Below, one piece after another: positions 4,720-41,828 of a DNA stretch of 64,000 nucleotides (its first letter is position 1; every line of letters begins with the position of its first letter). Location: NCBI GenBank assembly GCA_963719425.1, contig OY970382.1:321246-385245 (forward strand), read 5' to 3'. A program made the position numbers and the translations under genes. This DNA comes from an uncultured bacterium (GTDB taxonomy: Bacteria; Patescibacteriota; Minisyncoccia; UBA6257; 2-01-FULL-56-20). Below the pieces are notes generated by a model. The model was not told the DNA's origin. It ran no database searches and was given only the letters and a program-made list of their open reading frames with translations.

Positions 4720-5406
4720 ATGACCCGGTTCCATCTCCTCACGATTTTCCCTGAAATTTTCGATTCCTATCTCAAGGAATCTTTTTTGAAAAAAGCACAG
4801 GAAAAGAAACTGATTACGATTACGCCGCACAATCTGCGCGATTTCACGAGCGACAAGCATCGGAAGGTAGACGACCGGCCGTTTGGTGGCGGGCCGGGGA
4901 TGGTTCTTAAAGTGGAGCCCATTTACAAAGCGATTCGCGCCATTGTGCAAAAGTCGCGCGTTGCCCCGCGTAAGCGATGGGTCATTTTGTTCTCGCTCCG
5001 CGGAAAGAAGCTTGACGCGAAGGTATCGCGGCGGCTCGCAAAATACGACGAGCTTGTTTTGATCTGCGGCCGCTACGAAGGCGTGGATGAACGGGTGGCG
5101 CGATACGTCGCGGATGAAGAGATCTCAATAGGGGACTATGTGCTCTCCGGCGGCGAACTCCCCGCACTCGTCCTCATGGAATCCGTCTGTCGGTTCATCC
5201 CCGGCTTTTTGGGGAAACAGGAATCGCTTGAGGATTTTAAGGGCTCCTATCCCACATACACCCGCCCGGAGGTTTTTATAGCGAAGAAAAACGGTGCGGT
5301 GAAGAAGAATAGTACGAAAGGAAAAGCGCAAAAGTGGAGTGTGCCGAAAATGCTTCTCTCCGGCGACCACAAAAAGATCGCCGAGTGGCGCCGTGGGAAG
5401 CATTAA
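4720..5406 (+). CDS. trmD: tRNA (guanine37-N1)-methyltransferase
   Basis: TrmD motifs LTIFPE, PFGGGPGMVLK, RYEGVDERV, LLSGDHKKIAEWRR. Confidence 0.9.
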   Translation: MTRFHLLTIFPEIFDSYLKESFLKKAQEKKLITITPHNLRDFTSDKHRKVDDRPFGGGPGMVLKVEPIYKAIRAIVQKSRVAPRKRWVILFSLRGKKLDAKVSRRLAKYDELVLICGRYEGVDERVARYVADEEISIGDYVLSGGELPALVLMESVCRFIPGFLGKQESLEDFKGSYPTYTRPEVFIAKKNGAVKKNSTKGKAQKWSVPKMLLSGDHKKIAEWRRGKH

Positions 5407-5441
5407 GAAACGGCCGCTCCCGTTCTGTTAGAATAAAAGAC

Positions 5442-7217
5442 ATGGATCGGGAAACCAGGATCTGCCAGAATTGCAAATCTTCGTTCGTCATTGCGCCCGA
5501 GGACTTCACGTTCTATGAAAAGATCAAGGTCCCGCCGCCCACATGGTGTCCGGAGTGCCGCATGGCCAGAAAAATGGCCTTTCGCAACGAACGGACGCTT
5601 TACCGACAATCGTGCGCTTTGTGCGGCAGGAATGTTCTTTCAATGTATGCACAGGACACACCGCTTACTGTTTATTGCACGGAGTGCTGGTGGTCCGACA
5701 AGTGGGATCCGCTGAGTTATGGACGAGCCTACAATTTTTCTCAAAATTTCTTTGATCAATTTCGAAGGCTTTTTAATGCCATTCCGCGTGCGAATCTTTA
5801 TCAAACGCTCGTAGTTGATAGTCTTTATTCCAATTATGCTATCAACGTGAAAAATGGCTATATGGTTTTCGGGGGCCATGATTACGAAGATTGCTTATAC
5901 GCCGGACAGTGTAGTTTCGTCAAAGATTCTATTGATGTTTCCTTCAGTAGAAATTCTGAGATGTGTGCTTCATCAATCGATCTGTGGCGTTGCTCAAAAG
6001 TTTTTTTCAGTCGCTACGCCGAAGATTGTTCAGATTCTTATTTTCTCTTTGACTGCCGTAATTGCACCAATTGTTTTGGGTGCGCCAACCTGAGAAATAA
6101 ATCCTATTATATCTTTAATGAACCGTATTCAAAGGATGGATATTTTTCAAAATTAAAAGAGCTGAATATCGGCAGTTTTAAATCTTTAAAAGGGCTGGAG
6201 GGTAGAGTTTATGAATTTTGGTTGAAGTTTCCACGCCATTTCGCCAATATCAGAAATTCCAGAAATTGCATTGGCGATAATATTCATAATTCCAAAGATT
6301 GCTATTATTGTTTTGATGTTTATAAGGATATTGATAACTGCCGATATTCGTTTTTCTTACCCGACAACGGACGAGATTGTTATGATTCAGATCACACTGG
6401 CGTCAATTCAGAACTGATGTATGAGGTCATGAGCACAAGTTACGACGCCAAGGTCATAGCAAGCAATCGTATTTACAGTTGCCATGATATCTACTATTCC
6501 GACGATTGCCATAATTCCCAGAATCTTTTTGGCTGCATCGGTTTAAAGAAAAAGGAATATTGCATTTTGAACAAGCAGTATACCAGAGAGGAATATGAGG
6601 GTCTGGTGCCAAGAATTAAGGATCAAATGATGGCAATTTCTTACACTGATAAAGTTGGGAGGGTTTATAAATTCGGCGAGTTTTTCCCTATTGATTTCAG
6701 CCCGTTTGCTTATAACGAGACCTTGGGTCGGGAATACTTCCCGATAAGTAAGCGAGGAGCGATTGAGCGGGGTTATTCTTGGCGGGAGCCGGCAGCTAAA
6801 AATTATCAAATAACTATTAAGCCAGATCAGTTGCCAGATATTACTAGAGATGCGGCCAATTCAATGATTAATGAAATAATCGGTTGCGACCACAGGGGAG
6901 AATGTGCCGAGCAATGCACCACGGCTTTTCGTATTGTCCAAGAAGAATTGGATTTTTACCGTAAAATGAGCCTGCCTCTGCCCAGACTTTGTCCCAACTG
7001 CAGACATTATGGGCGCCTCAAGCAGCGGAATCCTTTAAAGTTGTGGCACCGAAAATGTACTTGTGCGGGCGCAAAATCAGAAAATGGCGCGTACGAGAAC
7101 TCCGCATCGCATTTCCACAGTTCCAGCCATTGTCCCAATGAGTTTGAAACCACCTACGCCGCGGACCGACCCGAGACCGTCTATTGCGAGCAATGCTACA
7201 ACGCGGAGGTGGTATGA
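5442..7217 (+). CDS. Cysteine-rich Zn-ribbon repeat protein, paralog A1 (family of 4 in window)
   Basis: Track ORF 5334 overlaps trmD; conserved family N-terminus MDRETRICQNC starts at 5442. About 45 Cys, N- and C-terminal CxxC...CxxC modules, repeated CxNCxxCFGCxNLRNKxYC units. Shares termini with ORFs at 7214, 9014 and 40041. Confidence 0.75.
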   Translation: MDRETRICQNCKSSFVIAPEDFTFYEKIKVPPPTWCPECRMARKMAFRNERTLYRQSCALCGRNVLSMYAQDTPLTVYCTECWWSDKWDPLSYGRAYNFSQNFFDQFRRLFNAIPRANLYQTLVVDSLYSNYAINVKNGYMVFGGHDYEDCLYAGQCSFVKDSIDVSFSRNSEMCASSIDLWRCSKVFFSRYAEDCSDSYFLFDCRNCTNCFGCANLRNKSYYIFNEPYSKDGYFSKLKELNIGSFKSLKGLEGRVYEFWLKFPRHFANIRNSRNCIGDNIHNSKDCYYCFDVYKDIDNCRYSFFLPDNGRDCYDSDHTGVNSELMYEVMSTSYDAKVIASNRIYSCHDIYYSDDCHNSQNLFGCIGLKKKEYCILNKQYTREEYEGLVPRIKDQMMAISYTDKVGRVYKFGEFFPIDFSPFAYNETLGREYFPISKRGAIERGYSWREPAAKNYQITIKPDQLPDITRDAANSMINEIIGCDHRGECAEQCTTAFRIVQEELDFYRKMSLPLPRLCPNCRHYGRLKQRNPLKLWHRKCTCAGAKSENGAYENSASHFHSSSHCPNEFETTYAADRPETVYCEQCYNAEVV

Positions 7218-9004
7218 CATTAGCCATGAATACCGAAATCAAAACCTGCCAAAACTGCGAATCCTCGTTCGCGATTGAACCCGAGGATTTTGATTTCTAT
7301 AAACGGATAACCGTCCCGCCGCCGACGTGGTGTCCGGAGTGCAGGATGATTCGCAGGCTGTCGCACAGAAATGAACGCAGCCTCCATCGCCGCATGTGTA
7401 GCGCCCCGGGGCACACGGAGGAAATCATCTCTATTTACGATGCGAGCGACGCTTCTCCCGCATACGACTACGAGTATTGGTGGAGCGATACATGGGATCC
7501 GCTGGCATACGGTGCGCTGTATGATTTTGGAAAAGATTTCTTTTCGCAGTGGCGCGACCTCCGAAATCGCGTGCCGCGTCTTGCTCTTTCCAATTCACGG
7601 GCCACGAACAGTGAGTATTGCAACGTAAACGACAAAAGCAAGGACTGCTATATGATTTCTGCCGCATATGAGAACGAGCACGTTCTCTACTCTAATCGCG
7701 TTTCCTACAGCAAGGATTCGGCAGACTGCTATATCCTTAACAAAGGCGAATTATGCTATGGAAATGTAGCGTGCACTGACTCCTACCGACTTCTTTTTAG
7801 CATACGATCCAAAAACTGCACCAACTCCGCATTTTTGTACGATTGTGATAATTGTCAGGACTGCTTCGGATGCATTAATCTGCGCAACAAGCGCTTCTGC
7901 CTGTTCAACGAGCAACTTACCAAGGAAGAATTTCTCAAGCAATCCAAGCGATTTGATCTGCGGAGTTTTTCAGCAATTGAAAGGGCAGCATCGCGTTTTC
8001 GCGAACTTTCTGCGCGGGCCATCCATAGGCACGCCACTCTTATTTCTACGGTGGATTCCACTGGCGACAATCTCTCTCAATGCAAACATTGCAGGAATTG
8101 TTTTGATTTTGACAGGGCCGAAGAATGTAAATTCTGTAATTGGGGAGGATTTGTCGTTAAAGATACTTATGATGCAAACGGGGTCGTCGACGTTTCGGAG
8201 CTTTTGTACGAAACGTTTGACGAGGTCCGAGGCTCACGCATTCTTTTTTCAAGCGTTGTCTACGACTCGCATGATATTGCCTATTCTATGAATTGCTATA
8301 ATTCCAACAATTTGTTCGGCTGCGTCGGATTGCGGAAGAAACAGTACTGCATATTAAACCGGCAATATTCTAAGGAAGAGTACGAATCCCTCGTCCCCAA
8401 AATCATTTCGCATATGTACACCCAGCCATATCGCGACAGTCGAGGCCTAGTATATACCTACGGAGAGTTTTTCCCTCCCGAATTGTCCGCCTTCGGCTAC
8501 AATGAAACCGTCGCGCATGATTTGGTAAGAATGTCGCAAGAAGAAGCACGGGCAGCGGGATTTCGATGGCGGGAATCTTCCGAGAGAAGCTATACAGTGA
8601 GCATACAAGCCGCGCAACTTCCTGACAGTCTCGACAGGGTGGAAGATTCGATTACCAAAGAGGTAATCGGCTGTAGCCATGGAGGAAAATGTGATGATCA
8701 ATGCACTACTGCGTTTCGCGTTATTCCCGACGAACTTCAATTGTATAGAAATCTAGGCGTGGCTCTTCCAAGGATGTGCTTCAATTGCCGTCACCATGCG
8801 CGCCTTCGCGAGAGGAATCCCTTAAAACTCTGGCGGCGCAAGTGCCGATGTGCAGGCGCAAAGTCAGAAGCTGATATTTATTTGAATACTACTGGCCATT
8901 TCCACGGCGCAGAACATTGTCCCAACGAGTTTGAAACCCCGTATGCTCCTAACCGCCCTGAGATTGTCTATTGCGAGCAGTGCTACCAGGCGGAGGTGGT
9001 ATAA
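7214..9004 (+). CDS. Cysteine-rich Zn-ribbon repeat protein, paralog B1
   Basis: Start ATG overlaps the upstream stop as ATGA (alternative start 7226, MNTEIKTC). CSAPGHTEEIIS motif shared with the copy at 40041; same C-terminal HCPNEFETPYAPNRPEIVYCEQCYQAEVV. Confidence 0.75.
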   Translation: MTLAMNTEIKTCQNCESSFAIEPEDFDFYKRITVPPPTWCPECRMIRRLSHRNERSLHRRMCSAPGHTEEIISIYDASDASPAYDYEYWWSDTWDPLAYGALYDFGKDFFSQWRDLRNRVPRLALSNSRATNSEYCNVNDKSKDCYMISAAYENEHVLYSNRVSYSKDSADCYILNKGELCYGNVACTDSYRLLFSIRSKNCTNSAFLYDCDNCQDCFGCINLRNKRFCLFNEQLTKEEFLKQSKRFDLRSFSAIERAASRFRELSARAIHRHATLISTVDSTGDNLSQCKHCRNCFDFDRAEECKFCNWGGFVVKDTYDANGVVDVSELLYETFDEVRGSRILFSSVVYDSHDIAYSMNCYNSNNLFGCVGLRKKQYCILNRQYSKEEYESLVPKIISHMYTQPYRDSRGLVYTYGEFFPPELSAFGYNETVAHDLVRMSQEEARAAGFRWRESSERSYTVSIQAAQLPDSLDRVEDSITKEVIGCSHGGKCDDQCTTAFRVIPDELQLYRNLGVALPRMCFNCRHHARLRERNPLKLWRRKCRCAGAKSEADIYLNTTGHFHGAEHCPNEFETPYAPNRPEIVYCEQCYQAEVV

Positions 9005-9013
9005 CTAAAAACA

Positions 9014-10792
9014 ATGGGACCGGAGACAAGAATTTGTCAGAACTGTAAGCAGCAATTCACGATCGAGCCGGAGGATTTCGTGTTCTATGAAAAGTTCAAT
9101 GTCCCGCCGCCGACGTGGTGTCCGGAGTGCCGATTCGTAAGACGCCTTACGTTACGGAACGAGCGGAGTTTGTATAAGCGAAAATGCGACCTCTGCGGAC
9201 AGGAAAAAATAATGCAATTTAGTCCCCAGTCGCCCTTCACCGTTTATTGCAAAGAATGTTGGTTGAGCGACCGGTGGGACGCTTCCGCGTATGCGAAAGA
9301 ATATGATTTTTCAAAGCCCTTTTTTGCGCAGTTTTTTGAACTGTTGCGCACTGTACCGCGACTCGGAATCGTCCATCAGGGAACAATTGTAGATAGTCAG
9401 TATGCAAACCGCGTGAGCAATTTAAAAAACTGTTATCTTGTCTACGGCAGTAATTTTGACGAAAACTGCATGTACGGCACATGGTTTAACAATTCAAAAG
9501 ATTCGATGGACGGACTCTCAGTGCAGAAATCGGAACAGTGTTATGAATGCATTGACTGCTTTGAATCACACAAGCTCTTTTACTCTCAAGAATGCACGGC
9601 ATGCAGCAGTTCGTACTTTCTCTTTAACTGCCGCAACTGCGAGAGTTGCTTTGGTTGCACGAATTTGAGAAACAAGAGTTATTGCGTATTTAACAAGCAA
9701 CATACCAAAGAAGAATATCAAAAGATCGTCGCCGGATTCAATCTCGGGAGCCGAACGATGCGTGATGCGCTGAAGCTCAAGTTCCTCTCAGAAAAAACAA
9801 AGTATGTTGTTCCTGCCCTCGTGGAACATCATAGCCAGAACGTATCGGGGAACTGGATAGAGGAATCAAAAAATGTTGCCGAAGGGTTTAGTTGCCGAAA
9901 GGTTGAGGACGGAAAATATCTCTACGGACTTGTAGGGTCCAAGGATGTCATGGATTACTCCTTTTGGGGGCGCGCCACAGAACTGGTCTATGATTCGGTG
10001 AATATCGGCTATCAGTCCTCAAGTATCCGTTTCGGCAATGAGGTATGGGATCAAATAACCGATGCGACGTACGTATTCAACTGCCACAACGCCCATGACC
10101 TTTTTGGATGCGTTGGGTTGAGAGGGAAAGAATACTGCATTTTGAACAAGCAATATTCAAAAACGGATTTTGCATCGCTGTCGTCAAAGATCATTGAACA
10201 GATGAAAACTGTCCCCTATAAGGACGCAACTGGAAAACTCTATTTTTATGGCGAATTTTTCCCTGTTGACTATCACCTTTTTGCTTACAACGAAACGATT
10301 GCGCACGAGTACTTTCCGCTTACCAAAGAGGAAGTGCTGCGACAGGGATATGCATGGAGGGATCCCGAGGATAGAAACTATAATATCACGCTCGCTCCCG
10401 ACGACTTACCTGATCACATAAAAGATGCCGAAAGTACCATCGCAGACCATATCATCGGCTGTGCTCACAAGGGCGCTTGTAATGAGCAGTGCACGACCGC
10501 GTTTCGCATTATCCCCACAGAATTACTCTTTTATAAAGCATATGAGATACCGCTCCCGACGCTCTGCCCAAACTGCAGGCACTATGGGCGATTGAAACAG
10601 CGAAACCCTCTGAAGCTTTGGCACAGGAAATGTCAGTGTGCGGGGACAAAATCGGAAAAGGGTATTTACGCCAATGCCGCTGTTCATCAGCATCAGACGA
10701 GCCACTGCCCCAACGAATTTGAGACCTCCTACGCGCCCGATCGCCCCGAGATCGTCTATTGCGAGCAGTGCTACAACGCGGAGGTGGTGTAA
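9014..10792 (+). CDS. Cysteine-rich Zn-ribbon repeat protein, paralog A2
   Basis: MGPETRICQNCKQQFTIEPEDFVFYEKFNVPPPTWCPECR N-terminus and ...CPNCRHYGRLKQRNPLKLWHRKC...YCEQCYNAEVV C-terminus nearly identical to A1; 9-nt spacer after B1. Confidence 0.8.
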   Translation: MGPETRICQNCKQQFTIEPEDFVFYEKFNVPPPTWCPECRFVRRLTLRNERSLYKRKCDLCGQEKIMQFSPQSPFTVYCKECWLSDRWDASAYAKEYDFSKPFFAQFFELLRTVPRLGIVHQGTIVDSQYANRVSNLKNCYLVYGSNFDENCMYGTWFNNSKDSMDGLSVQKSEQCYECIDCFESHKLFYSQECTACSSSYFLFNCRNCESCFGCTNLRNKSYCVFNKQHTKEEYQKIVAGFNLGSRTMRDALKLKFLSEKTKYVVPALVEHHSQNVSGNWIEESKNVAEGFSCRKVEDGKYLYGLVGSKDVMDYSFWGRATELVYDSVNIGYQSSSIRFGNEVWDQITDATYVFNCHNAHDLFGCVGLRGKEYCILNKQYSKTDFASLSSKIIEQMKTVPYKDATGKLYFYGEFFPVDYHLFAYNETIAHEYFPLTKEEVLRQGYAWRDPEDRNYNITLAPDDLPDHIKDAESTIADHIIGCAHKGACNEQCTTAFRIIPTELLFYKAYEIPLPTLCPNCRHYGRLKQRNPLKLWHRKCQCAGTKSEKGIYANAAVHQHQTSHCPNEFETSYAPDRPEIVYCEQCYNAEVV

Positions 10793-13191: not shown

Positions 13192-14466
13192 TTGAAGATA
13201 CAAAATTTTGAACAACTCGCGGTCTCGGAGGCGCGGCAGGCATTGCTTACGATCACGAGGGCCGGACTTGAGGCGATTGACACGGCGCGGGTGATGCGCG
13301 AAACGATGCGGATTGAAGGAGAAATGCTGATTCTCGGAAGTGAAAAAATTCCGCTCGCGGAGATCGGGCAGCTCGTTTTTGTCGCAGTCGGCAAGTGCGC
13401 CGTAGAGGCCTCGCTTGCGGCGGAAGCAACGCTTGGTGACCACCTCACGCGCGGTGTTGTCGTAGACGTGAAGGCCCGCCCCGCCCCGGCCTCCACACGG
13501 CTCAAAACGTTTTGCGGCACCCATCCTTTGCCTTCAGAAGAAAACCTCCATGCGACAGAAGCGATCGTTCAGACGCTCGCGGGACTCACCGAGCGAGATC
13601 TCGTGATTTTTGTAATTTCCGGCGGCGGTTCCACACTGCTCTTTCTGCCGCAAGACAAAACTGACCGAAGCGAGATTGATATATTCAAAGTGCTCACGAA
13701 TGCCGGCGCGACTATTCAGGAAATGAACGTGGTGCGGAAACACCTGTCGCTCGCGCGCGGCGGCTACCTTGCGAAATATGCCTATCCTGCCCGCGTCATC
13801 TCGCTCATTATGAGTGACGTGCCGGGGAACGATATTGCAACCGTTTCTTCCGGTCCGACCGTAAAAGACATGACGACGATAGAAAACGCGGAAAGGGTGC
13901 TTGCAAAATTCAACGCGCCCAAAGCCAAGCTGGTTGAAACGCCGAAGGAAGACAAATATTTCGCGCGGGTCACAAACGTCCTCGTAGTATCCAACGTGCG
14001 CGCGCTTGACGCGATGCGCGCGGCCGCGGAGAAACTGGGCTTTCTCGCGGAGATTCGCGGGAGCGAACTCACAGGCGAGGCATCGGAAGTTGGGCAAATG
14101 GTCACGGAGGCGCTCCATGCGGTGCCCCCGCGGTCGGCGCTCCTTTGGGGCGGCGAAACGACTGTCACCGTCCGCGGCGCGGGCAGGGGAGGCCGCAATC
14201 TAGAACTCGCGGCTTCCGCGCTCCGCTTCGTGCGCGACGGCGAGGAAATTCTTTCTCTCGCTTCGGACGGCCGCGATCATGGCCCCTTCGCCGGCGCGAT
14301 CTGTGATACCATTACCAAAAAGGCGATCGCGGACGCCGGGCTTGATCTTGAACAATTCCTTAGCAATAACGATACCTACGGTCTTTTTGAAAAAGTTGGC
14401 AATTATCTCACGACCGGCGACACCGGCTCAAATGTGTCGGACCTCATCATAGCAATGAAGGCGTAG
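13192..14466 (+). CDS. Glycerate kinase, MOFRL family (hydroxypyruvate reductase-like)
   Basis: DUF4147/MOFRL architecture, ~420 aa, motifs VFVAVGKCA, ISGGGSTLLF, GRGGRNLE. Confidence 0.6.
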   Translation: MKIQNFEQLAVSEARQALLTITRAGLEAIDTARVMRETMRIEGEMLILGSEKIPLAEIGQLVFVAVGKCAVEASLAAEATLGDHLTRGVVVDVKARPAPASTRLKTFCGTHPLPSEENLHATEAIVQTLAGLTERDLVIFVISGGGSTLLFLPQDKTDRSEIDIFKVLTNAGATIQEMNVVRKHLSLARGGYLAKYAYPARVISLIMSDVPGNDIATVSSGPTVKDMTTIENAERVLAKFNAPKAKLVETPKEDKYFARVTNVLVVSNVRALDAMRAAAEKLGFLAEIRGSELTGEASEVGQMVTEALHAVPPRSALLWGGETTVTVRGAGRGGRNLELAASALRFVRDGEEILSLASDGRDHGPFAGAICDTITKKAIADAGLDLEQFLSNNDTYGLFEKVGNYLTTGDTGSNVSDLIIAMKA

Positions 14467-27231: not shown

Positions 27232-29352
27232 CTAGCCAAATTGCTCAACCACCACCCGGGCATCCACCACCACCGCGCCTTTGTCGCTCGCCATCACGGG
27301 GTTGAGGTCTATGCCCTGGACTTCGGGATGTTCAAGCGCGAGGTGCGAGAGGGCAATGATGAGTTTTGCGAGAGCGTGCGCGTCCACGGACTTTTGGCCG
27401 CGGGTGCCGCGGAGGAGGGGAGCGCCTTTTATTTCGTCCATCATGGCGCGCGCGTCGGCGTCACTTACGGGGGCCACGCGGAGCGCCACATCCTTCATGG
27501 TTTCCACATAGATGCCGCCGAGGCCGAAGCTTATGATCGGTCCGAAAATGGCGTCGCGCTTCATGCCGATGATCGTCTCCACGCCCTGCGCCATCGGTTG
27601 CACGAGCATTCCCTGGATCTTCGCGTTCGGAACTTTCCGGCGGACGGTTTTTTCCATTTTGTCCCACGCCTGCCGCGCGGCCTCGGCGCCCACTATGTTC
27701 AACCGGACGCCGCCGACATCTGATTTGTGACTCACCTCGCGCGAGATCACTTTCATGGCAGCGGGACGGTTGCCGAGCTTTGCAAAAATGGCGGCAATGT
27801 CGTCTTTCGTGCGAGCAAGGTCGCCCACGAGTTCAATGTCGTATTCCTTGAGCAACGTCCTGGCCTGCAGAAAATCCATGAGCGTAGCGGAGATTTCTTT
27901 CACGGCCGCCGCTTCCGGCTTCTTGTGCCCAAACACGGCGAGCGCGAGGTCATCAAGCGCGCCGATCGCATCGTCCGGAAACTCAAAGTTGACCAGATTG
28001 TTTTCATAAAGTACCCGCACGCCGTCCGCGACCGCGCCGTGGCCCATAAAGACCGGCGCGATGAATTTCTTTTTGCCGTACGTCGCGATAAGCCGCGCCG
28101 TGCCCGCAGCGTCGGTCATCATCTGCGGCGTGACAATCAAAATGATCCCCTCAACGGTTTTTTCCGTGCACAGGATCTTGAGCGCCGCTTCATAGCGCGG
28201 CGGCAAGGCATCGCCCAAGATATCCACGGGATTCCCAATCGCTGCCATCGGAGGAAGTACCTCGGTGAGCGCCCGCTTCGCGCCATCGCTCAACTTTGCG
28301 AGTGAAAGCGCGGAGGACAGTTCCACAAGGTCTGCCGAAACCACCGACGGCCCGCCGCCGTTCGTGAGGATCGCGATCTCGCGCGGGGGCCGCATGGTAT
28401 TCAGGGCGTCCGTCCGCACGCCAAGCGCAAGAAGCTTCGCCATGTTATAGAACTCACGCAGGGAACCGACGACGGCCACCCCACTCTCGTGGCACGCTTC
28501 GTCAAAATCCTTGCTTTCGGGAGCGAGCGAGCCCGTGTGTGAAAGAACCGCCGCGGTGCCGCGCGCGCTCCTGCCCGCCTTCAGAACGACAACCGGCTTT
28601 TTCCGTGTGATCTTCTTCGTGAGTGCCATGAATTTATGTCCGTCACTCACTTTTTCCAGATACAAAAGAATCGCCTTTGTGTCGCGGTCGTCCGCAAGAT
28701 ATTCCAGAAAATCAATTTCCGTAAGCGCCGCTTCGTTGCCCAAACTGATGAACTTTGCAAGTCCCACGTCCTCCTCGCGCGCCCAGTCAAGCATCGCGGT
28801 GCCAAGGGCGCCCGACTGCGAAAGGATGGTAACGGGACCAGCTCGCAGCGGCTCGTTCGCGCTCGCGGCTGCGGCAAAGGTCGCGTTCAGGCCCGAATAG
28901 GCATCAATCGTTCCAAGGCAGTTCGGACCGAGGAGCGCGATGTGATAGCTCGCCGCCGTCATCCGGATCTTTTTCTCAAGCTCCTTGCCCGCGTCGCCCG
29001 CCTCCTTGAAGCCGGAAGAGATCACAATCACCGCGGGCACGTCTTTCCCCCCGCACTCTTCAAGCGCGGCAGGCACCGCAGAAGCGGGGATCGCGATTAG
29101 CGCCAGATCAATCTTATCCTTGATATCCACAATGGACCGATAGGCCGGAAGGCCAAGGACGGTTTGCTCGTTCAGTGAGACGGGAAAGATCTTCCGCTTC
29201 GCCGCGCCCGGGTTGCCATTTGCGCTGCTTGGGTTGCCGTTCGCGCCACCACCTTTCAAATTAAAAACCAGCGAATAGCCAACTTTGTTCTTGTCGTTGG
29301 AGGCGCCGATGACCGCGACCGATTTCGGATCAAAGAAATTCTTGAGGTCCAT
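27232..29352 (-). CDS. Acetyl-CoA synthetase (ADP-forming), fused alpha/beta (acetate--CoA ligase, NDP-forming)
   Basis: CoA-binding N-terminus FFDPKSVAVIGAS, succinyl-CoA-synthetase-like ligase-CoA domain, C-terminal ATP-grasp. Start at internal MDLKNF (29352); the upstream extension in the track ORF is probably spurious. Confidence 0.8.
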   Translation of the reverse strand: MDLKNFFDPKSVAVIGASNDKNKVGYSLVFNLKGGGANGNPSSANGNPGAAKRKIFPVSLNEQTVLGLPAYRSIVDIKDKIDLALIAIPASAVPAALEECGGKDVPAVIVISSGFKEAGDAGKELEKKIRMTAASYHIALLGPNCLGTIDAYSGLNATFAAAASANEPLRAGPVTILSQSGALGTAMLDWAREEDVGLAKFISLGNEAALTEIDFLEYLADDRDTKAILLYLEKVSDGHKFMALTKKITRKKPVVVLKAGRSARGTAAVLSHTGSLAPESKDFDEACHESGVAVVGSLREFYNMAKLLALGVRTDALNTMRPPREIAILTNGGGPSVVSADLVELSSALSLAKLSDGAKRALTEVLPPMAAIGNPVDILGDALPPRYEAALKILCTEKTVEGIILIVTPQMMTDAAGTARLIATYGKKKFIAPVFMGHGAVADGVRVLYENNLVNFEFPDDAIGALDDLALAVFGHKKPEAAAVKEISATLMDFLQARTLLKEYDIELVGDLARTKDDIAAIFAKLGNRPAAMKVISREVSHKSDVGGVRLNIVGAEAARQAWDKMEKTVRRKVPNAKIQGMLVQPMAQGVETIIGMKRDAIFGPIISFGLGGIYVETMKDVALRVAPVSDADARAMMDEIKGAPLLRGTRGQKSVDAHALAKLIIALSHLALEHPEVQGIDLNPVMASDKGAVVVDARVVVEQFG

Positions 29353-29567
29353 GTACGGCTCGTTATGTTCATAATAACAAACTTGACGGATTCCTGTACG
29401 TGTATAAAATAAGCGGTACGTGCTGCTTCCTCTCCTAGGGGGAAGTGGTGGCGTCGGGGAGGGTGGCACCAAACCTCCCGCATAGGGGTTTCCTCTCACC
29501 CTCCCTGAATATAATCAGCCAGTGTATCATAATTGCAGCTGGCTATTTTGTTTATAAAAATTACTGC

Positions 29568-30057: not shown

Positions 30058-30861
30058 CTACTTTAATTGCTCCTCAAACGTCGGCTGTTCCACGCGGTAG
30101 AAAATGCCGAGCGGGACTTTGTCGTTGCCGGAACCACTTCCACCACCGCCGTCAGTCGCTCCCCGCACCGCCTCCATCGCGTGCGCAAGGTTATCTTTCG
30201 GCTCATTTTCATCAATCCAATACATGCGTTCTTTGTAGTAGTCGCGCGTGTCATAGAAAGTGATGCATGGCTGGATGATATCCACAAACGAGAATCCTTT
30301 GTGCGCGATCGCGGCCTTCATGATCTCCTTGGTCTTCGGGATATCCAGCGCATACGATCGCGCGACGAACGTGGCGCCCGAGGCAAGCATGAAAAGCAGG
30401 GGATTGAACGGCGGCTCGGTACTGCCGTAGGGTGTGGATTTTCCTTTGAAGCCGACGGGCGTCGTAGGCGTTGCCTGGCCGGTTGTCAAAGCAAACACCT
30501 GGTTGTCATGGATGAAAAGATTGATGTCCGAATTTCTGCGCGCCGCATGTACGAGGTGCTCCACGCCCTCCGAATACGAATCGCCGTCGCCGCTGAATCC
30601 CACGACCGTGAGCGCGGGGTTCGCGACCTTCATTCCCTCCATGCTCGCGATCACGCGGCCGTGGAGTGACGTGAACGTGTTCGTGTTCAAATAGTCGGTG
30701 ATCTTGCCGTGGCAGCCGATCCCCGCGGCCGAGACCAAATTCTCCAGCTTCAGCTCGCCGTCGTTCACGAGTTCGGTCACCGCCTGCCGGAAGGCAACAA
30801 GGATCGCCGCGTTCGGGCATCCCGGGCACCAGGTGATTCTTGCTTTGGTTGAGAGGTCCAT
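30058..30861 (-). CDS. korB: 2-oxoacid:ferredoxin oxidoreductase beta subunit (TPP-binding)
   Basis: CPGCPN N-terminus, TPP motif GFSGDGDSYSEG, ~267 aa; could be a pyruvate- or 2-oxoglutarate-specific enzyme. Confidence 0.8.
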   Translation of the reverse strand: MDLSTKARITWCPGCPNAAILVAFRQAVTELVNDGELKLENLVSAAGIGCHGKITDYLNTNTFTSLHGRVIASMEGMKVANPALTVVGFSGDGDSYSEGVEHLVHAARRNSDINLFIHDNQVFALTTGQATPTTPVGFKGKSTPYGSTEPPFNPLLFMLASGATFVARSYALDIPKTKEIMKAAIAHKGFSFVDIIQPCITFYDTRDYYKERMYWIDENEPKDNLAHAMEAVRGATDGGGGSGSGNDKVPLGIFYRVEQPTFEEQLK

Positions 30862-32591
30862 TATTTGAGTAGTACGTTTATTTCTTCAGCCAATTCCATC
30901 GGATCAAACGGCCGCGCATCATATCGCAAAATTTTCTTATCAATTTTTATGCCGGTCTTCTCGCGGATGAGGGAGGCGAGCTGTGCCGTGCGGTTGGCCT
31001 CTACGTCAATAATCATCGTTGCGTCCGCGAGTTCCGCAGTCACTCTTTCGGCATCAAACGGTTCCATCCAAACGATCTGTAGAAGCTTTGCCGGCTTTGC
31101 AAGATATTTTGCCGCCTCAAGCACGGCGCCCCTTGTGGATCCCCAGAACACGATCACATTGGGACTGTCTTTGTCTCCGTATACTTTGATGGCCTCGCAG
31201 CTCTTTAATTCGCTCGCGATCCCTTGTGTCTTCGCAAAGCGTTTATCACTCATTTTTTTGATCGCCTCCGCTTCATCGGTTGTGATACCGCCCTCGCTGT
31301 GCTCATAGCTGTCCGCTTTCACGGTCGCGCCCGGCGTGCCCGGGAAAGCCAACGGTGAGACGCCGTCGTCGGTGATTTGATACCGATTATAATTCTCCGG
31401 CACTTTTTCAAGAATTTTGCCCCGCTCAATTTTGACCGACTGTGGATCAAGCGCGGGGACGGTTTCCAAGCTCTCCGAAAGCTCGCGGTCTAGAATAACA
31501 ATGGCCGGCACCTGATATTTCCATGCGAGGTTGAGCGCGTCCGCGCCGCAAACGAACGCTTCATAGGGGTCGCCGGGCGCGAGCACGATGCGTGGAAATT
31601 CGCCGTGGCCAGAATGAAGGATGAATTGCAGATCAGCCTGGCCCGTGTACGTGGGGGCGCCGGTTGCGGGAGCATAGCGCTGCGAAACGGCGATGGCGAT
31701 CGGCAGTTCGGCCATTCCCGCAAAACTGAACGCTTCCTGCATCAACGCGAAGCCGCCGGTCGCAGTGCCCACTGCGGCGCGCTTGCCAGCGTAGACGGCG
31801 CCGAGCGCCATATGAATGACCGCGAGCTCGTTCTCTGGTTGGATCACTTTTATTTTGTATTCCTTTTGCTGTTTGGCGAGAAAATGGAGGATACCGGACG
31901 ACGGTGTCATGGGATAGCTCAAATAAATATCCATTCCCGCCGCCACAAGGCCCCTGCCGAGTGCCGTGTTTCCGTCAAGGAGCTCCGTTGCGGCGGTGCG
32001 TGGCGACGCTGACACCGGTGCAAGTTTCTCTCGCTGTCGTAAATTGAGTCCCGCGAGGTGCTCATATCCTGCCGCAGCGAGCTTCGGGTTTGCGTCCAAG
32101 CTTCTCCCTTCAAATATTTTTTTTAAAGCCGCGGCCATATCATCCGGCGCGACGCCAAGAAGATAGCAAACAGCACCGAGCGCGACGGAGGTGCGGGTGA
32201 TCGGCGGAGCGCCGATTTTTCGCGCAAATTCCTTCATCGGCAAAACAACTACGTTCGTGCCGAAGCGCTCCGCGTACTCTTTTTCAAACGCATCGGCAAG
32301 AACGACGGTGTCTTTGTTCAACTCGTCCTTGTGGATCCGCAAGGTTTCCTCATCAAGTGCAAGAAGTATGTCAAGCGTCGGATGGTCACAATGGACCTTC
32401 TCGCCAGAAAAGGTCACGCGGCTAAAATTGTGTCCGCCGCGGATGAGCGAGGGATAATCAAAACCGACAAAGGCCTCGAAGCCGATGCCCGCGAGGAGCT
32501 GCGCCAAACTTGCCCCTGCTTCCCGCGCGCCTTCGCCCGCCGCGCCGCCGATACCAACGGTGAGGACGTTCTCATGAGAAGATGCTGACAT
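30861..32591 (-). CDS. korA: 2-oxoacid:ferredoxin oxidoreductase fused gamma-alpha subunit
   Basis: N-terminal gamma-like domain (LTVGIGGAAGEGAREAG) fused to an alpha-subunit core (YPMTPSS motif); start taken at MSASSHENV (32591). The 106-aa upstream extension of the track ORF is judged spurious. Confidence 0.75.
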   Translation of the reverse strand: MSASSHENVLTVGIGGAAGEGAREAGASLAQLLAGIGFEAFVGFDYPSLIRGGHNFSRVTFSGEKVHCDHPTLDILLALDEETLRIHKDELNKDTVVLADAFEKEYAERFGTNVVVLPMKEFARKIGAPPITRTSVALGAVCYLLGVAPDDMAAALKKIFEGRSLDANPKLAAAGYEHLAGLNLRQREKLAPVSASPRTAATELLDGNTALGRGLVAAGMDIYLSYPMTPSSGILHFLAKQQKEYKIKVIQPENELAVIHMALGAVYAGKRAAVGTATGGFALMQEAFSFAGMAELPIAIAVSQRYAPATGAPTYTGQADLQFILHSGHGEFPRIVLAPGDPYEAFVCGADALNLAWKYQVPAIVILDRELSESLETVPALDPQSVKIERGKILEKVPENYNRYQITDDGVSPLAFPGTPGATVKADSYEHSEGGITTDEAEAIKKMSDKRFAKTQGIASELKSCEAIKVYGDKDSPNVIVFWGSTRGAVLEAAKYLAKPAKLLQIVWMEPFDAERVTAELADATMIIDVEANRTAQLASLIREKTGIKIDKKILRYDARPFDPMELAEEINVLLK

Positions 32592-32672
32592 ACGAGCATT
32601 ATAGCATCCTTGCGACGCCGTGTGGCGGAGAGATGGTGGACGGAGCGATGTGGGTTTTTGTATAATTCTCTT

Positions 32673-33194
32673 ATGAGAGCGACCGCACTGCAGTTGCAGG
32701 AATTCCTCGCGACAAGGTTGAACTTGGTGATTTGCTTGACTGGCTTCGCCATTCCTTTTATTTTTTCCGGACCGCAGCTTGTTACGGGAACTATTGTGAA
32801 CACCCTCTTTTTCATTTCGGCCGAGAAACTTACAAGGAAAGACTGGTACGCCGTGCTCGTCCTCCCGAGCCTTGGCGCGTTCGCCCATGGGGTGTTGTTC
32901 GGCCCGCAAACGATCTTTCTCTTGTATTTCCTTCCTTTCATCTGGCTGGGAAATTATCTGCAGGTGAGCCTCTTTTCATCGCTACGACCGCAAGGATACG
33001 CGGCAGGAACGCTCTCTTCCGCTCTCGCGAAAAGTCTTCTCTTGATCGGTGCGGCAAACGTATATTATGCGATCCATGCCGTCCCACAGGTATTCATTGC
33101 CTCAATGGGCGCGATACAATTCATCACCGCCTGCCTGGGCGGGGTAGTGTCATATCTCGCAGTGCGTTATCTCAAACCGCATGAATCAACATGA
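32673..33194 (+). CDS. Hypothetical polytopic membrane protein
   Basis: 5-6 predicted TM segments; start chosen at MRATAL just after TATAAT (32655-32660). Resemblance to ECF-type S components is a guess. Confidence 0.4.
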   Translation: MRATALQLQEFLATRLNLVICLTGFAIPFIFSGPQLVTGTIVNTLFFISAEKLTRKDWYAVLVLPSLGAFAHGVLFGPQTIFLLYFLPFIWLGNYLQVSLFSSLRPQGYAAGTLSSALAKSLLLIGAANVYYAIHAVPQVFIASMGAIQFITACLGGVVSYLAVRYLKPHEST

Positions 33195-34003
33195 ATGAAA
33201 TAGAGACTCTCATCAAGGCGCTCCAGGAAAAAAAGAAATTGGTGGCGATGCTCGCGCCCTCTTTCCCGATAGTATTTTCATATCCGGCCATTATCGCCAC
33301 GCTAAGGAAGGCGGGATTTTCCCACGTAATAGAAGTCGCCGCTGGGGCAAAAAAGACGAACGAGGAATTACTCGCGCTGCTCAAAAAGAATCCCGACGCA
33401 CGATACATCACAAGCCCCTGCCCGACGGTCGTTCGCATGATCCGCACGCAAATGCCCCAGTACGTGAAATACTTTACTCCCGACGTTGATTCCCCGATGG
33501 TCGCCACAGCGAAGATCGCGGCTGAACAATATCCCGATCACAAACCCGTTTTCATCGGCCCGTGCGTCGTAAAAAAACTTGAGGCCACGGAAGACCACCC
33601 CGAACTTAACATCTTGGTTCTCACATATGCGGAGATGTCACAGGTCCTTGCCCGTTTGGGTGTCACGGAAGATCCGGCGGCAGAAGATCAATTTGACCTC
33701 GTGGAGCTCGGCATGACAAGAATCTATCCGGTGGACGGCGGCCTCTCTCACAGCAGCGGAGTACTCACGGGTCTTCCCACGGGCGCGGTTCAGGTAGTAT
33801 CCGGTTGGAAAAACTGCGTGGAGGCCATCAAAAAATTTGACACGGATCCCAAGGTGCGCCTTTTGGATATTCTTTTCTGCGAAGGCGGCTGCATCGGAGG
33901 TCCCGGCATCAAGAGCCCGCTGAATACCGAAGAAAGGAAAAAGAAAATTTTGGATTACTACGCTTCTCACGCTTCGCCGCCCGCAAATCTTCCGCAGATA
34001 TGA
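33191..34003 (+). CDS. [FeFe]-hydrogenase H-cluster domain-like protein (minimal, 270 aa)
   Basis: Three motifs matching hydrogenase L1/L2/L3 signatures: TSPCP (cf. TSCCP), GPCVVKKLE (cf. MPCxxKKxE), FCEGGCIGGPG (cf. MACxGGCxxGGGQP). Confidence 0.5.
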   Translation: MNEIETLIKALQEKKKLVAMLAPSFPIVFSYPAIIATLRKAGFSHVIEVAAGAKKTNEELLALLKKNPDARYITSPCPTVVRMIRTQMPQYVKYFTPDVDSPMVATAKIAAEQYPDHKPVFIGPCVVKKLEATEDHPELNILVLTYAEMSQVLARLGVTEDPAAEDQFDLVELGMTRIYPVDGGLSHSSGVLTGLPTGAVQVVSGWKNCVEAIKKFDTDPKVRLLDILFCEGGCIGGPGIKSPLNTEERKKKILDYYASHASPPANLPQI

Positions 34004-35262
34004 AGATACGTTCACTTGAAGCGCGGCCGATTCTTGACTCGCGGGGCGAATGGACGGTGGAAGTGACGCTTGAACTGAAAAACGGCGCGCGTGCGACCGC
34101 CTCGGTGCCGCAAGGAAAGAGCACCGGTGCGACCGAAGCGCGGGCATTGCCAGCGCCCGTGGCCGTGCGGAAGATAAACAACGTCATCGCGCCGAAATTG
34201 CGGCACACGGATATTCGTGCCCGCGGCAGCCAAAATGAACAGGCTGCGCTTGACGCGTTCCTGATACGGCTAGATGGCACGGGCACGAAGTCCAATTTGG
34301 GTGCGAACGCCATCCTTGCAACTTCCATCGCGTTTGCGCGGGCGTCCGCGACGGCAAACAAAATTCCGCTTTGGGGACATATCCGCAGACTTCTCGGTTC
34401 GGCAGCATTTCCGTCCAAGCTCGCCACCGGACGCGGCCTCGCGCATCCCCGTCTTTTCATTAATGTCATCAATGGGGGATTGCACGCAGGGAACAATTTG
34501 CACTTCCAGGAATATCTCGTCATTCCGAAGTGTCGGACGATCCGCGAATCGGTTGAGATCGGCACCGAGGTCTACCACGCACTGGGCGAGGCGCTCGCAC
34601 GCGCGAAAGGCAAAACTGCAACGAACCTTGGCGACGAAGGGGGATACGCGCCGAATTTTAAGGACGATATGGAACCCCTCCGTATCCTCCGCATCGTCGT
34701 CCAAAAACTGAAGCTCGCAAAGCAAATTGATTTTGGCATTGACGCTGCCGCAACCGACATCAAAAAGTTGAAGCACAAAGAACTGGAAAGCATGTATGTA
34801 AAGCTGCTCCGCCAAGACAACTTTATTTACCTTGAAGATCCGTTCGCCAATAAAGATTTTTTGAGTTTTGCGGCGCTCGCGATGCGCTGCGACGCAGGCA
34901 GGGCAAAGGGCCACGGGCAGCGGGGCGACGCGCCCGTATGGATCGCAGGGGACGATCTTACGACGACAAATATCCACCGCATGGAACGGGCGCATGCGGA
35001 GGGGAGTATAAACGCAGTCATCATAAAGCCGAACCAGATCGGTACGGTAAGCGAAGCATTGGACGCCGTGCGCATGGCTCGCAAATATAACTGGGCAGTC
35101 ATCGCCTCGCACCGGAGTGGCGAAACCGATGATGACTTTATCGCCGACTTTGCCTACGGCGTGGGCGCGGACGGCCTAAAGCTCGGCGCTCCCGCCCGCG
35201 GCGAACGGACCGCGAAGTACAACCGCCTGTTGGAAATTGAAGCTAAGGAAACGCGCCTGTAA
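34000..35262 (+). CDS. eno: Enolase (phosphopyruvate hydratase)
   Basis: LDSRGEWTVEV N-terminus, SHRSGETDD motif, ~420 aa. Confidence 0.9.
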   Translation: MKIRSLEARPILDSRGEWTVEVTLELKNGARATASVPQGKSTGATEARALPAPVAVRKINNVIAPKLRHTDIRARGSQNEQAALDAFLIRLDGTGTKSNLGANAILATSIAFARASATANKIPLWGHIRRLLGSAAFPSKLATGRGLAHPRLFINVINGGLHAGNNLHFQEYLVIPKCRTIRESVEIGTEVYHALGEALARAKGKTATNLGDEGGYAPNFKDDMEPLRILRIVVQKLKLAKQIDFGIDAAATDIKKLKHKELESMYVKLLRQDNFIYLEDPFANKDFLSFAALAMRCDAGRAKGHGQRGDAPVWIAGDDLTTTNIHRMERAHAEGSINAVIIKPNQIGTVSEALDAVRMARKYNWAVIASHRSGETDDDFIADFAYGVGADGLKLGAPARGERTAKYNRLLEIEAKETRL

Positions 35263-35353: not shown

Positions 35354-35381
35354 TTGACAAAGTCTATAGGTATGATATAAT
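35354..35381 (+). promoter_or_regulatory. Consensus sigma-70 promoter TTGACA-N16-TATAAT upstream of the orphan receiver gene
   Basis: Hexamers read directly; ~80-nt leader then GGAAAAGAGGAGAGAAAG RBS. Confidence 0.5.
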
Positions 35382-40040: not shown

Positions 40041-41828
40041 ATGAATGCTGAAACCAAAACCTGCGTAAATTGCAAGAACCAGTTCGTGATAGAACCGGAG
40101 GATTTTGATTTCTACAAGAAAATGGCTGTCCCGCCGCCGACGTTTTGTCCAGATTGTAGGCTGCAACGGCGGTTAGCATACAGGAATGAGCGGGGACTCT
40201 CAAAGAGGAAGTGTAATGCTCCGGGGCACAGCGAGGATATTATTTCGGCATATTCCGATCCGAAACTCGTGGTCTATGACGAAAGATACTGGTGGAGCGA
40301 TGCATGGGACGCCGGTCAGTACGGAAGGGCATACGATTTTACGAAGCCATTCTTTCTACAATTCCGGGAATTAATGGAACAAACCCCACACATCGCACTG
40401 GTAGACAGCAAATCGACCAATACAAGCTACTGCAATTATACCGTAGAGCACAAAAACTGTTATCTCGTGAGTGCAGGATGGAATAATGAAGACTGCTATT
40501 ACGGCAACAGAATTTCATTCTGCAAAGATACGCTGGATTCATATGTGTGCCACCGGACAGAATTCAGCTATGAGAATGTGTATTGCAAGGAATCGTATCA
40601 ACTATTTTGGAGCCGAAACTCGGAAAACTGCAACAACTCCTATTTTCTCTATGATTGCCGCGGCTGTTCCCACTGCGCGTGTTGCGTAGGATTGCGCAAC
40701 AAGCAATATTATATTTTTAACCAACCCTACACGAAAGAGGAATATGTCAAGAAAATCGCGGAGATCAATTTGGGGAACCGCGCGTCACTTTCACGATTAC
40801 AAGAGAAACTTGAATCAATGCGCCTCGCAACCATACATCGGTACGCGCAGGTATACAAATCACAAAACGTAATTGGAGATAATATTGAAGAAGCAAAGAA
40901 TTGCTACTGGTGCTTTGATGTGGCGGGCAACGCGGAAAATTCCAAGTACTGCAATTGGGCAACCTACGGGATGAAAGACTGTTACGATTCAGGGCCTGGA
41001 GCAGGCGGCCAGTCAGAGCTCACGTACGAAGGGGTAAGCATCGGGGTCAACAACGCCCGTTGCGCCTTCGGCGCGGCAATATGGTACTCGCATGATATCC
41101 TCTATAGTTACAACTGCCATTCGTCCCAATATCTCTTCGGCTGCGTTTCGCTTCGGAACAAAAAGTATTGTATTTTAAACAAACAATATTCCAAAGAAGA
41201 ATATGAAGCACTCCTGCCGCGCATACGGAAGCATATGGAAAATATGCCATATGTAGATAAAAATGGAAGGCAATATCGATACGGAGAACTCTTTCCTATT
41301 GAACTTTCGCCCTTCGCGTACAATGAAACTGTAGCGCAAGAATTTTTCCCTCTTACCGAAAAAGAGAGTGCAGAAGAAAATTATCCATGGCGTACAGAAG
41401 GGGCTCGTTCGTACGCACCCACCATGCGTGCGGCTGATCTTCCCGACTCCATACAATCCGTGAGCGACGATATCTCAAAGGAAATTATTGAATGCGAACA
41501 CGCCAACGCGTGCAACGACGGATGCGCCTCGGCGTTCAAAATTATTCCACAGGAGCTTATGTTCTACCGAAAATTCAACCTCCCGCTGCCACGGTTATGC
41601 TTCAATTGCCGCCATGCGAATCGGCTGCGACAAAGGAATCCCACGAAGCTCTGGCATCGCATGTGTGCGTGCGCGGGCAAAGCGTCAGAAAATGGCCGGT
41701 ATGCTAACAGTGCACCGCATGGCCACCATGGTGTGAACCATTGTCAGAACGAATTCGAAACTACCTACACTCCCGACCGCCCTGAAATCGTCTATTGCGA
41801 GCAGTGCTACCAAGCAGAAATCGTTTAG
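40041..41828 (+). CDS. Cysteine-rich Zn-ribbon repeat protein, paralog B2
   Basis: MNAETKTCVNCKNQFVIEPEDFDFYKKMAVPPPTFCPDCR...CNAPGHSEDIIS (B subtype) and C-terminal CQNEFETTYTPDRPEIVYCEQCYQAEIV; full-length homolog of 5442/7214/9014. Confidence 0.8.
   Translation: MNAETKTCVNCKNQFVIEPEDFDFYKKMAVPPPTFCPDCRLQRRLAYRNERGLSKRKCNAPGHSEDIISAYSDPKLVVYDERYWWSDAWDAGQYGRAYDFTKPFFLQFRELMEQTPHIALVDSKSTNTSYCNYTVEHKNCYLVSAGWNNEDCYYGNRISFCKDTLDSYVCHRTEFSYENVYCKESYQLFWSRNSENCNNSYFLYDCRGCSHCACCVGLRNKQYYIFNQPYTKEEYVKKIAEINLGNRASLSRLQEKLESMRLATIHRYAQVYKSQNVIGDNIEEAKNCYWCFDVAGNAENSKYCNWATYGMKDCYDSGPGAGGQSELTYEGVSIGVNNARCAFGAAIWYSHDILYSYNCHSSQYLFGCVSLRNKKYCILNKQYSKEEYEALLPRIRKHMENMPYVDKNGRQYRYGELFPIELSPFAYNETVAQEFFPLTEKESAEENYPWRTEGARSYAPTMRAADLPDSIQSVSDDISKEIIECEHANACNDGCASAFKIIPQELMFYRKFNLPLPRLCFNCRHANRLRQRNPTKLWHRMCACAGKASENGRYANSAPHGHHGVNHCQNEFETTYTPDRPEIVYCEQCYQAEIV

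Follow-up and report, generated by a model that had tools for sequence, protein, structure and literature searches.

The hydA-like gene and its product

The 64,000-nt stretch of DNA analysed here, referred to as the window, comes from an uncultured bacterium of the Patescibacteriota (contig OY970382.1, assembly GCA_963719425.1, positions 321,246 to 385,245 of the forward strand) and contains at 33191..34003 (+) a hydA-like gene coding for a 270-aa single-domain [FeFe]-hydrogenase H-domain protein of an ultraminimal type from the candidate phyla radiation (CPR). The reading frame is intact, with an ATG start, 270 codons and a TGA stop. Directly upstream lies the gene of MEM (32673..33194, +), a membrane protein of 173 aa with six helices that belongs to no classified family; its stop codon and the start of the hydA-like gene have 4 nt in common (ATGA). 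An enolase gene (34000..35262, +; Enolase_N and Enolase_C) follows as the third gene of the local unit, and here too the start shares 4 nt (ATGA) with the preceding hydA-like stop. The source contig measures 887,956 bp, which fits a small CPR genome.

A first-pass annotation, made from the letters of the sequence, had recognised in the 270-aa protein the three H-cluster segments TSPCP, GPCVVKKLE and FCEGGCIGGPG, had noted the lack of an N-terminal F-cluster domain, and had proposed a Fe_hyd_lg_C search, an alignment with the H-cluster ligands and a structure prediction as checks. The three motifs are present at the places indicated, an agreement far beyond chance, and the other proposals were borne out as follows. 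The Pfam profile Fe_hyd_lg_C (PF02906) matched the protein with 117.7 bits (E = 8.5e-34, cutoff 22.1) over the whole profile (1-245 of 245); the domain covers residues 15-238 of the 270, and no other Pfam match was above threshold. By the Pfam span and the Cys count no F-cluster domain was found. The protein possesses five Cys in total and a quarter of its relatives (25 of the 120 described below) exactly four, so that it is without accessory clusters. A search of PDB sequences gave [FeFe] hydrogenases as the best matches throughout. The AlphaFold2 model (pLDDT 88.8, pTM 0.89) showed the H-domain fold, and Foldseek aligned it with probability 1.0 and query-normalised TM scores of 0.70-0.81 to more than 50 hydrogenase chains, the score being about 0.8 for CbA5H, HydABC, HDCR and CpI. 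There can be very little doubt that the gene product is a true H-domain protein. The top NCBIfam match was to the C-terminal half of the monomeric group B1 model and lay well under the full-length cutoff of that model. Membership of group A or B was rejected, the NCBIfam scores (51.2 vs a cutoff of 405.95 for group A, 132 vs 450 for group B) being far under the cutoffs.

A word-indexed database search returned 1321 relatives, the best 120 of which were used for the sequence analyses; these are all single-domain proteins of 255-277 aa, more than 60% identical to the hydA-like protein, and those that bear a name all belong to the CPR (Levy-, Beckwith-, Roizman- and Gottesmanbacteria, Microgenomates). 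A genome scan with one genome per GTDB species and a 9-sequence alignment as query detected relatives in 162 species; the best 80 loci, numbered in an L series, were analysed, and most of them carry CPR labels. The closest relative (L001, 86% identity) is located on a closed chromosome of 898,885 bp (OY970175.1). The comparison with L001 gave a dN/dS of 0.093 for the hydA-like gene, a mark of strong purifying selection, and practically the same value, 0.091, for the adjacent enolase.

The residues were mapped to CpI, the sequence used being 100% identical to PDB 1c4a/1feh/3c8y (residues 1-574), and their conservation was read from the alignment with the 120 relatives and from a second set of 119 more diverse sequences. 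Motif P1 (TSPCP, residues 74-78; 33410..33424, +) includes C77, the [4Fe-4S]H ligand equivalent to CpI C300, and P76 at the position of C299. Motif P2 (GPCVVKKLE, residues 123-131; 33557..33583, +) contains C125 (C355), K128 (K358, the partner of the distal CN ligand), E131 (E361) and G123, which stands for M353. Motif P3 (FCEGGCIGGPG, residues 229-239; 33875..33907, +) provides C230 (C499) and C234 (C503, the bridging Cys to [2Fe]), and is preceded by L228 in place of M497. The four H-cluster ligands are kept in all 120 relatives, and the equivalents of K358, E361, A230-P231-S232 (here A22-P23-S24) and P324 are equally invariant, as is Gly at the position of M353; the four Cys, K358, E361, A230-P231-S232 and P324 equivalents are retained also across the 119 more diverse sequences. 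The residues of the [2Fe] pocket, K128, P23/S24, P102 and G183/G184 (CpI K358, P231/S232, P324 and G421/G422), are invariant or nearly so. Judged from the sequence, the conservation of the K358, P231/S232 and P324 equivalents is of a kind that would matter only with a bound [2Fe] site.

The proton-relay C299 of CpI corresponds to P76, in agreement with the replacement recognised at first pass. Pro occupies this position in 120 of 120 relatives, each with T[S/T]PCP; therefore P76 is a fixed character of the family and no lesion. The equivalents of the E279/E282/R286 relay were placed differently by two alignments owing to a 4-residue deletion.

That the gene might be a decaying relic or an annotation artefact is scarcely credible. 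The small genome, the missing maturases, the missing relay Cys and the splitting of hydA by a frameshift in one lineage (L082/L083) would be in keeping with it, but the selection and conservation data effectively refute it: the dN/dS of 0.093, on account of which a pseudogene was rejected, the 1321 database relatives and the 162 GTDB species with a relative, the invariant motifs, and the translational coupling of the gene to conserved neighbours.

Some loci of the scan deserve separate mention. At L082 and L083 (both 6509-7295; sources Patescibacteria group metagenome-assembled genome (MAG) GCA_018829345.1 and Logan SRR10598174) two overlapping ORFs (74 aa and 197 or 159 aa) stand in place of a continuous hydA-like gene downstream of an intact MEM, and since this was seen in two independent assemblies it may be a real frameshift or pseudogenisation; a truncated match at L064 resembles the same split. 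At L063 (9454-10804 of DATKWX010000044.1, labelled Candidatus Bathyarchaeia archaeon) a complete CPR-type pair of MEM and hydA was found, with 45% identity and TSPCP, which is due either to mis-binning or to inter-domain transfer. Five loci labelled Moraniibacteriota, Patescibacteria or 'Saccharibacteria' (L071, L074, L077, L079, L080) possess a tailed, DPANN-like form of about 283 aa without MEM; the presence of this form in some CPR-labelled genomes suggests that CPR bacteria and DPANN archaea have exchanged genes for ultraminimal hydrogenases. L003, L004, L008, L009 and other TPA_asm loci with a CPR-type pair are titled 'uncultured Gammaproteobacteria', 'Pseudomonadales' or 'Saccharibacteria', and the record labels of such MAGs look unreliable.

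The membrane protein MEM and the genomic neighbourhood

The conserved neighbour of the hydA-like gene, overlooked in the first-pass annotation, is the upstream MEM. It occurs upstream on the same strand in 55 of the 65 evaluable CPR-clade loci; the two frames overlap in 47 of these 55 and lie no more than 30 nt apart in 50. In the reverse test, distant MEM homologs (37-43% identical) from Roizmanbacteria, a Patescibacteria-group MAG and Parcubacteria were located directly upstream of a PF02906 gene in three cases out of three, the other neighbours being unrelated. The dN/dS of MEM was 0.151.

A search of 46 MEM members against Pfam and NCBIfam gave no match, none of these members reached ECF_trnsprt, ECF-ribofla_trS or related families at E <= 1, and no PDB sequence was matched; a Pfam domain was found in none of the 196 database homologs, one of which, from the Joint Genome Institute (JGI), is labelled 'riboflavin transporter'. 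The AlphaFold2 model (pLDDT 88.9) is a bundle of six long helices. Its comparison with the PDB by Foldseek gave nothing significant, no match reaching E = 1e-3; the best geometric matches, which are not significant, were TmRibU (5kc0, TM 0.61/0.63), then 5edl, 4tkr and 4rfs_S (0.48-0.51), which include ThiT and PanT, and the Lnt membrane domain. With the S-components of energy-coupling factor (ECF) transporters (RibU, ThiT, PanT) MEM shares the size of about 170 aa and six transmembrane helices, its termini being probably cytoplasmic as judged by eye from the positive-inside rule; it differs from them in that EcfA/EcfT genes are not adjacent and no significant Foldseek or profile match exists. 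The invariant positions of MEM are mainly intramembrane and include the polar residues N44, S67, T81, N95, K121, Q150 and T153, and there is no conserved Cys or His in the alignment. Together these features speak against a redox cofactor, and they suggest that MEM does more than anchor passively. As far as its sequence allows such a reading, MEM would have a channel- or transporter-like role in addition to anchoring.

According to PMC11216029, an uncharacterised transmembrane protein of 4-6 helices, hyd6TM, is encoded beside archaeal group A [FeFe] hydrogenases. It resembles MEM as a small multi-helix membrane protein of undefined function next to a minimal [FeFe] hydrogenase; it differs in belonging to archaeal group A clusters and not to group E or to bacteria, the two proteins being compared by description only. 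In the DPANN loci no MEM is present. In four of these (L067, L068, L070 and L075, Nanoarchaeota/Woesearchaeota) a convergent gene just downstream of hydA codes for a 290-325-aa protein with 8-10 predicted helices, judged from its sequence to be EamA/DMT-like; since the four loci are closely related, this synteny may only reflect their relatedness.

A sigma-70-like promoter match (TGGACG-18-TATAAT; 32637..32666, +), a consensus match only, has its end 7 nt ahead of the MEM start codon. Downstream of it no strong promoter-like site follows until 35354-35381, and a + strand terminator-like site is absent in between (likewise by consensus), so that MEM, hydA and eno look like one unit; because TATAAT ends so close to the MEM ATG (32661..32675), the transcript may be leaderless or nearly so.

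A two-subunit 2-oxoacid/pyruvate:ferredoxin oxidoreductase (POR; 30058..32588, -) is encoded divergently from this unit, with the beta subunit at 30058-30861 and a fused gamma-alpha subunit at 30861-32588 (POR, POR_N, TPP_enzyme_C, PFO_beta_C), the start at 32588 being taken from the first Met before the POR domain. Beyond it are located an ADP-forming acetyl-CoA synthetase (ACD) of fused alpha/beta type (27232..29499, -; CoA_binding_2, Succ_CoA_lig, Ligase_CoA_2, ATP-grasp_5), a ferredoxin-reductase-like flavoprotein (24769..26058, +; Pyr_redox_2 and Reductase_C) and a mono-cluster (three-Cys) ferredoxin (24482..24751, +; Fer4_13). The last two (24482..26058) are candidate electron carriers and putative donors to HydA, and, in an organism poor in redox enzymes, the pair could connect the ferredoxin pool with that of NAD(P)H. 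A NifU-like scaffold (23456..24283, +; NifU_N and Fer2_BFD) and a NifS-like cysteine desulfurase (21054..22361, +; Aminotran_5) represent general Fe-S assembly and not H-cluster maturases. The region also comprises a phosphoglycerate-mutase-family phosphatase (22880-23455), a pyruvate phosphate dikinase/phosphoenolpyruvate synthase (PPDK/PEP synthase; 16059-18524) and a glycerate kinase (13192-14466), and on the whole it offers a coherent local context. POR, ACD, enolase, PPDK/PEP synthase, the mono-cluster ferredoxin and NifS/NifU all lie within 20 kb.

Between the acetyl-CoA synthetase and the reductase-like gene a protein with an Mrr-type restriction endonuclease domain is encoded (26315..27169, -; Mrr_cat, E = 7.5e-29). 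Four ORFs of about 600 aa with 34-37 Cys each occur at 5334..7217(+), 7184..9004(+), 9014..10792(+) and 40041..41828(+), three of them in tandem; two (5334-7214 and 40041-41825) were searched against Pfam and gave no match.

Nearest relatives and proposed function

An exhaustive HMMER search among 50%-identity representatives arranged the relatives of the hydA-like protein in three tiers: the CPR family itself, with few representatives; single-domain proteins of about 260-310 aa with 32-42% identity; and multidomain proteins of 550-880 aa, in which the H-domain begins at about residue 60-80, an arrangement known from the putative sensory group C. Outside the CPR the nearest relatives are DPANN proteins with one domain, 270-298 aa long and 37-42% identical, and the matches of the genome scan in the same range of identity came from Nanoarchaeota, Woesearchaeota and Nanoarchaeia (L067-L070, L073, L075). 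A profile of the DPANN proteins retrieved 1852 relatives, the top 120 of which measure 278 aa in the median, some of them bearing names of Nanoarchaeota and Pacearchaeota; 'Forterrea' was absent among the names returned by this search. At the position of C299 none of the 120 DPANN-type proteins has Cys, the residue being V in 61, A in 30, P in 28 and T in 1, so the absence of the relay Cys is normal for the ultraminimal lineage.

A neighbour-joining tree with 100 bootstrap replicates, which is rough, not a maximum likelihood tree, and does not include the Greening reference set, united the MEM-linked CPR proteins, the hydA-like protein among them, in one clade (bootstrap 85), separate from and outside the DPANN clade. 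The hydA-like protein is thus best regarded as belonging to a sister group or branch of the ultraminimal lineage within the CPR and not as a member of the published archaeal clade.

That clade, group E, comprises the 'ultraminimal' [FeFe] hydrogenases of DPANN archaea, with an average of 286 aa, reported in a survey that covered archaeal genomes only (Greening et al., 2024, Cell; PMC11216029). Its representative, Fm of Ca. Forterrea multitransposorum, contained after purification 4.2 Fe per protein, displayed the H-cluster bands in Fourier-transform infrared (FTIR) spectra after maturation with [2Fe]adt, and evolved H2 with a bias to proton reduction; moreover, a closed DPANN genome without maturases encodes an enzyme competent in H-cluster binding and catalysis (PMC11216029).

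A comparable function may be proposed for the CPR protein. The protein would be a bare H-domain of about 30 kDa, in which C77, C125 and C230 would bind the [4Fe-4S] part of the H-cluster and C234 would bridge to the [2Fe] subcluster in a pocket lined by K128, P23/S24 and P102. For want of accessory clusters, [4Fe-4S]H would receive its electrons directly from a small ferredoxin, presumably reduced by the divergently encoded pyruvate/2-oxoacid:ferredoxin oxidoreductase, and protons would be reduced to H2, disposing of fermentative reducing power as proposed for group E. With Pro in the place of the relay Cys and an E279/R286 relay that cannot be aligned, the protons would have to arrive by a non-canonical route. 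The enzyme would be made together with MEM and would probably work bound to it at the membrane. From what the sequences tell, the balance tips slightly in favour of an active H2-evolving enzyme that works with MEM in vivo; we infer in the same conditional sense that its H-cluster is occupied in the cell. The first-pass annotation had offered a sensory protein, a non-catalytic one and a very reduced hydrogenase side by side. The last fits best, because the protein belongs with the ultraminimal single-domain lineage, whose DPANN branch matches group E, the tested member of which binds the H-cluster and evolves H2; the sensory option is weak, as there is no PAS or other output domain, and a non-catalytic protein is hard to reconcile with the dN/dS of 0.093 and with [2Fe]-pocket residues that do not vary.

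Several observations weigh against an active, MEM-associated hydrogenase. The CPR clade joins the DPANN and other short forms at a bootstrap of 24 only, with the long forms outside, in the neighbour-joining tree, and the DPANN set itself, judged by its sequences, matches group E by size, taxonomy and architecture, on which their equation rests. The active-site signature (no C299, Gly for M353, Leu for M497) is common to the hydA-like family and the long group C-like proteins. About 10 of the 65 CPR-clade loci are without an adjacent MEM, so that it is not strictly needed in cis. The metabolic context is variable as well. The first-pass annotation had read the co-location with korAB, enolase and ACD as a route from pyruvate to acetate, ATP and H2; the genes are real neighbours, and the route is plausible for this genome, where the ferredoxin, the flavoprotein, PPDK/PEP synthase and NifS/NifU are near, but it is not a property of the family: the full korAB/ACD/enolase arrangement recurs only in L001 among the 80 loci, and POR or ACD stands near the hydA-like gene in merely a handful of the others.

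A further point against it is the absence of maturase genes from the sequences searched. As the earlier annotation had stated, hydE/F/G are absent from the 64-kb window, where the radical-SAM motif CxxxCxxC occurs in none of the ORFs and the sole P-loop ORF is an ABC-transporter ATPase; nor were HydE/F/G found in the 1.14 Mb flanking the 80 related loci. In these flanks two ORFs of at least 250 aa contain CxxxCxxC, one at residue 148 and of MiaB-type look, the other of 753 aa with a Cys-rich N-terminus; from the motif position and the N-terminal sequence neither was judged to be HydE- or HydG-like.

The lack of maturase genes in the window and in the 80 flanking regions, together with the nearby NifS/NifU genes for general Fe-S assembly, is what would be expected if the protein bound [4Fe-4S] only and the [2Fe] subcluster were never installed in vivo, so that it served as a small redox or electron-transfer partner of MEM or POR or as an Fe-S carrier. 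Precedents are the eukaryotic hydrogenase-like proteins Nar1/NARF, which are H-domains without a [2Fe] site. This family is defined by an N-terminal ferredoxin-like Cys cluster and by the loss of the [2Fe]-pocket residues; a Nar1/NARF-type identity was rejected, since that Cys cluster is absent from a protein with five Cys in total and K358 and the other pocket residues are kept. The equivalents of K358, P231/S232, P324 and G421/G422 are invariant across the CPR, DPANN and long forms, and the closed DPANN genome without maturases encodes an enzyme competent in H-cluster binding and catalysis. A protein with [4Fe-4S] alone is consequently considered unlikely, and a complete H-cluster is preferred.

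It may also be asked whether MEM contributes to catalysis. MEM and the H-domain protein could form a two-component, membrane-bound minimal hydrogenase unique to the CPR, in which MEM would supply what the reduced enzyme is missing: it could provide the proton path to or from the active site, H2 turnover perhaps being coupled to ion movement across the membrane, or take up an H-cluster precursor for HydEFG-free maturation. Such an arrangement is a speculative and improbable one; if true, it would define a new functional class of [FeFe] hydrogenase system.

No description of this family was found in the literature searched on [FeFe] hydrogenases of CPR/Patescibacteria, the coverage of which is incomplete. 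The H-domain part has its published archaeal precedent, and the bacterial spread, the smaller size and the coupling to MEM appear to be undescribed in that literature. Taken by its sequences, the hydA-like family is a CPR-bacterial clade of putative ultraminimal [FeFe] hydrogenases in which the relay position is always Pro and which has a dedicated membrane protein, itself outside the classified families. If active, its members, with 255-270 aa compared with the 286-aa average of archaeal group E, would be among the smallest hydrogenases known; they would widen the range of ultraminimal [FeFe] hydrogenases beyond the DPANN archaea to the CPR bacteria and make H2 production a common trait in both radiations of ultra-small symbionts. 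The invariant Pro in place of the relay Cys offers a natural test case for proton delivery to the H-cluster without the canonical pathway, MEM provides a lead on HydEFG-free maturation and on whether minimal hydrogenases can work at the membrane, and the small size of the protein makes it an attractive engineering scaffold.

Comparison with known [FeFe]-hydrogenase groups

With the group A enzymes (CpI, CrHydA1, DdH) the hydA-like protein shares the fold (TM 0.70-0.81), the four Cys ligands, K358, E361 and the APS motif. It is only about 22% identical to them and differs by the replacements C299 to Pro, M353 to Gly, M497 to Leu and Q325 to Met, by the E279/R286 relay that cannot be aligned, by shortened loops, and by GGPG in place of GGGQP.

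The active site resembles that of the putative sensory group C HydS proteins, such as HydS of Thermotoga maritima, in which P, A, S or T replaces the relay Cys of P1, Gly stands at M353 and Leu or Met at M497; T[ST]PCP occurs also in many of the long group C-like proteins, which are 27-35% identical to the hydA-like protein. The long forms measure 550-880 aa and possess an N-terminal Fe-S domain and C-terminal signalling domains, whereas the hydA-like protein has neither. TmHydS, the characterised example, is described as sensory and biased to H2 oxidation (PMC11216029). By analogy with these putative sensors, the H-domain might be an H2 or redox sensor or a regulatory subunit that gates or regulates MEM as a transporter or channel, the membrane protein taking the place of a fused PAS domain in signalling. 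The shared signature (no C299, Gly at M353, Leu at M497) would suit this, as would the nature of the partner, a membrane protein that has conserved polar residues inside the membrane and weakly resembles ECF S-components, and the fact that MEM is conserved and the metabolic context is not. However, PF02906 fills nearly the whole protein, and an output domain of the PAS, kinase, phosphatase or MCP type is absent. Moreover, group E, to which the closest relatives with a single domain correspond, has a tested member that evolves H2 and favours proton reduction, the DPANN-type relatives are entirely without MEM, and CPR genomes of about 0.9 Mb would have little to regulate. A sensory function is accordingly regarded as decidedly unlikely, and an H2-evolving enzyme remains the preferred assignment.

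The closest correspondence is with group E of the DPANN archaea. In both cases a single H-domain of less than 300 aa without accessory Fe-S clusters keeps the four H-cluster Cys and has altered canonical proton-transfer residues, and the hosts are fermenters of very small size with reduced genomes. Most group E hosts lack HydEFG; on the CPR side none of these genes was found in the window or in the 1.14 Mb around the 80 related loci. The differences lie in the host of the hydA-like protein, which is a CPR bacterium (Microgenomates/Levybacteria-like), in the shorter CPR proteins (255-270 vs 270-298 aa), which are without the C-terminal tail of the DPANN forms, in the invariant Pro at the C299 position compared with V, A or P in DPANN, and in the coupling of CPR hydA to MEM, which the DPANN loci do not possess.

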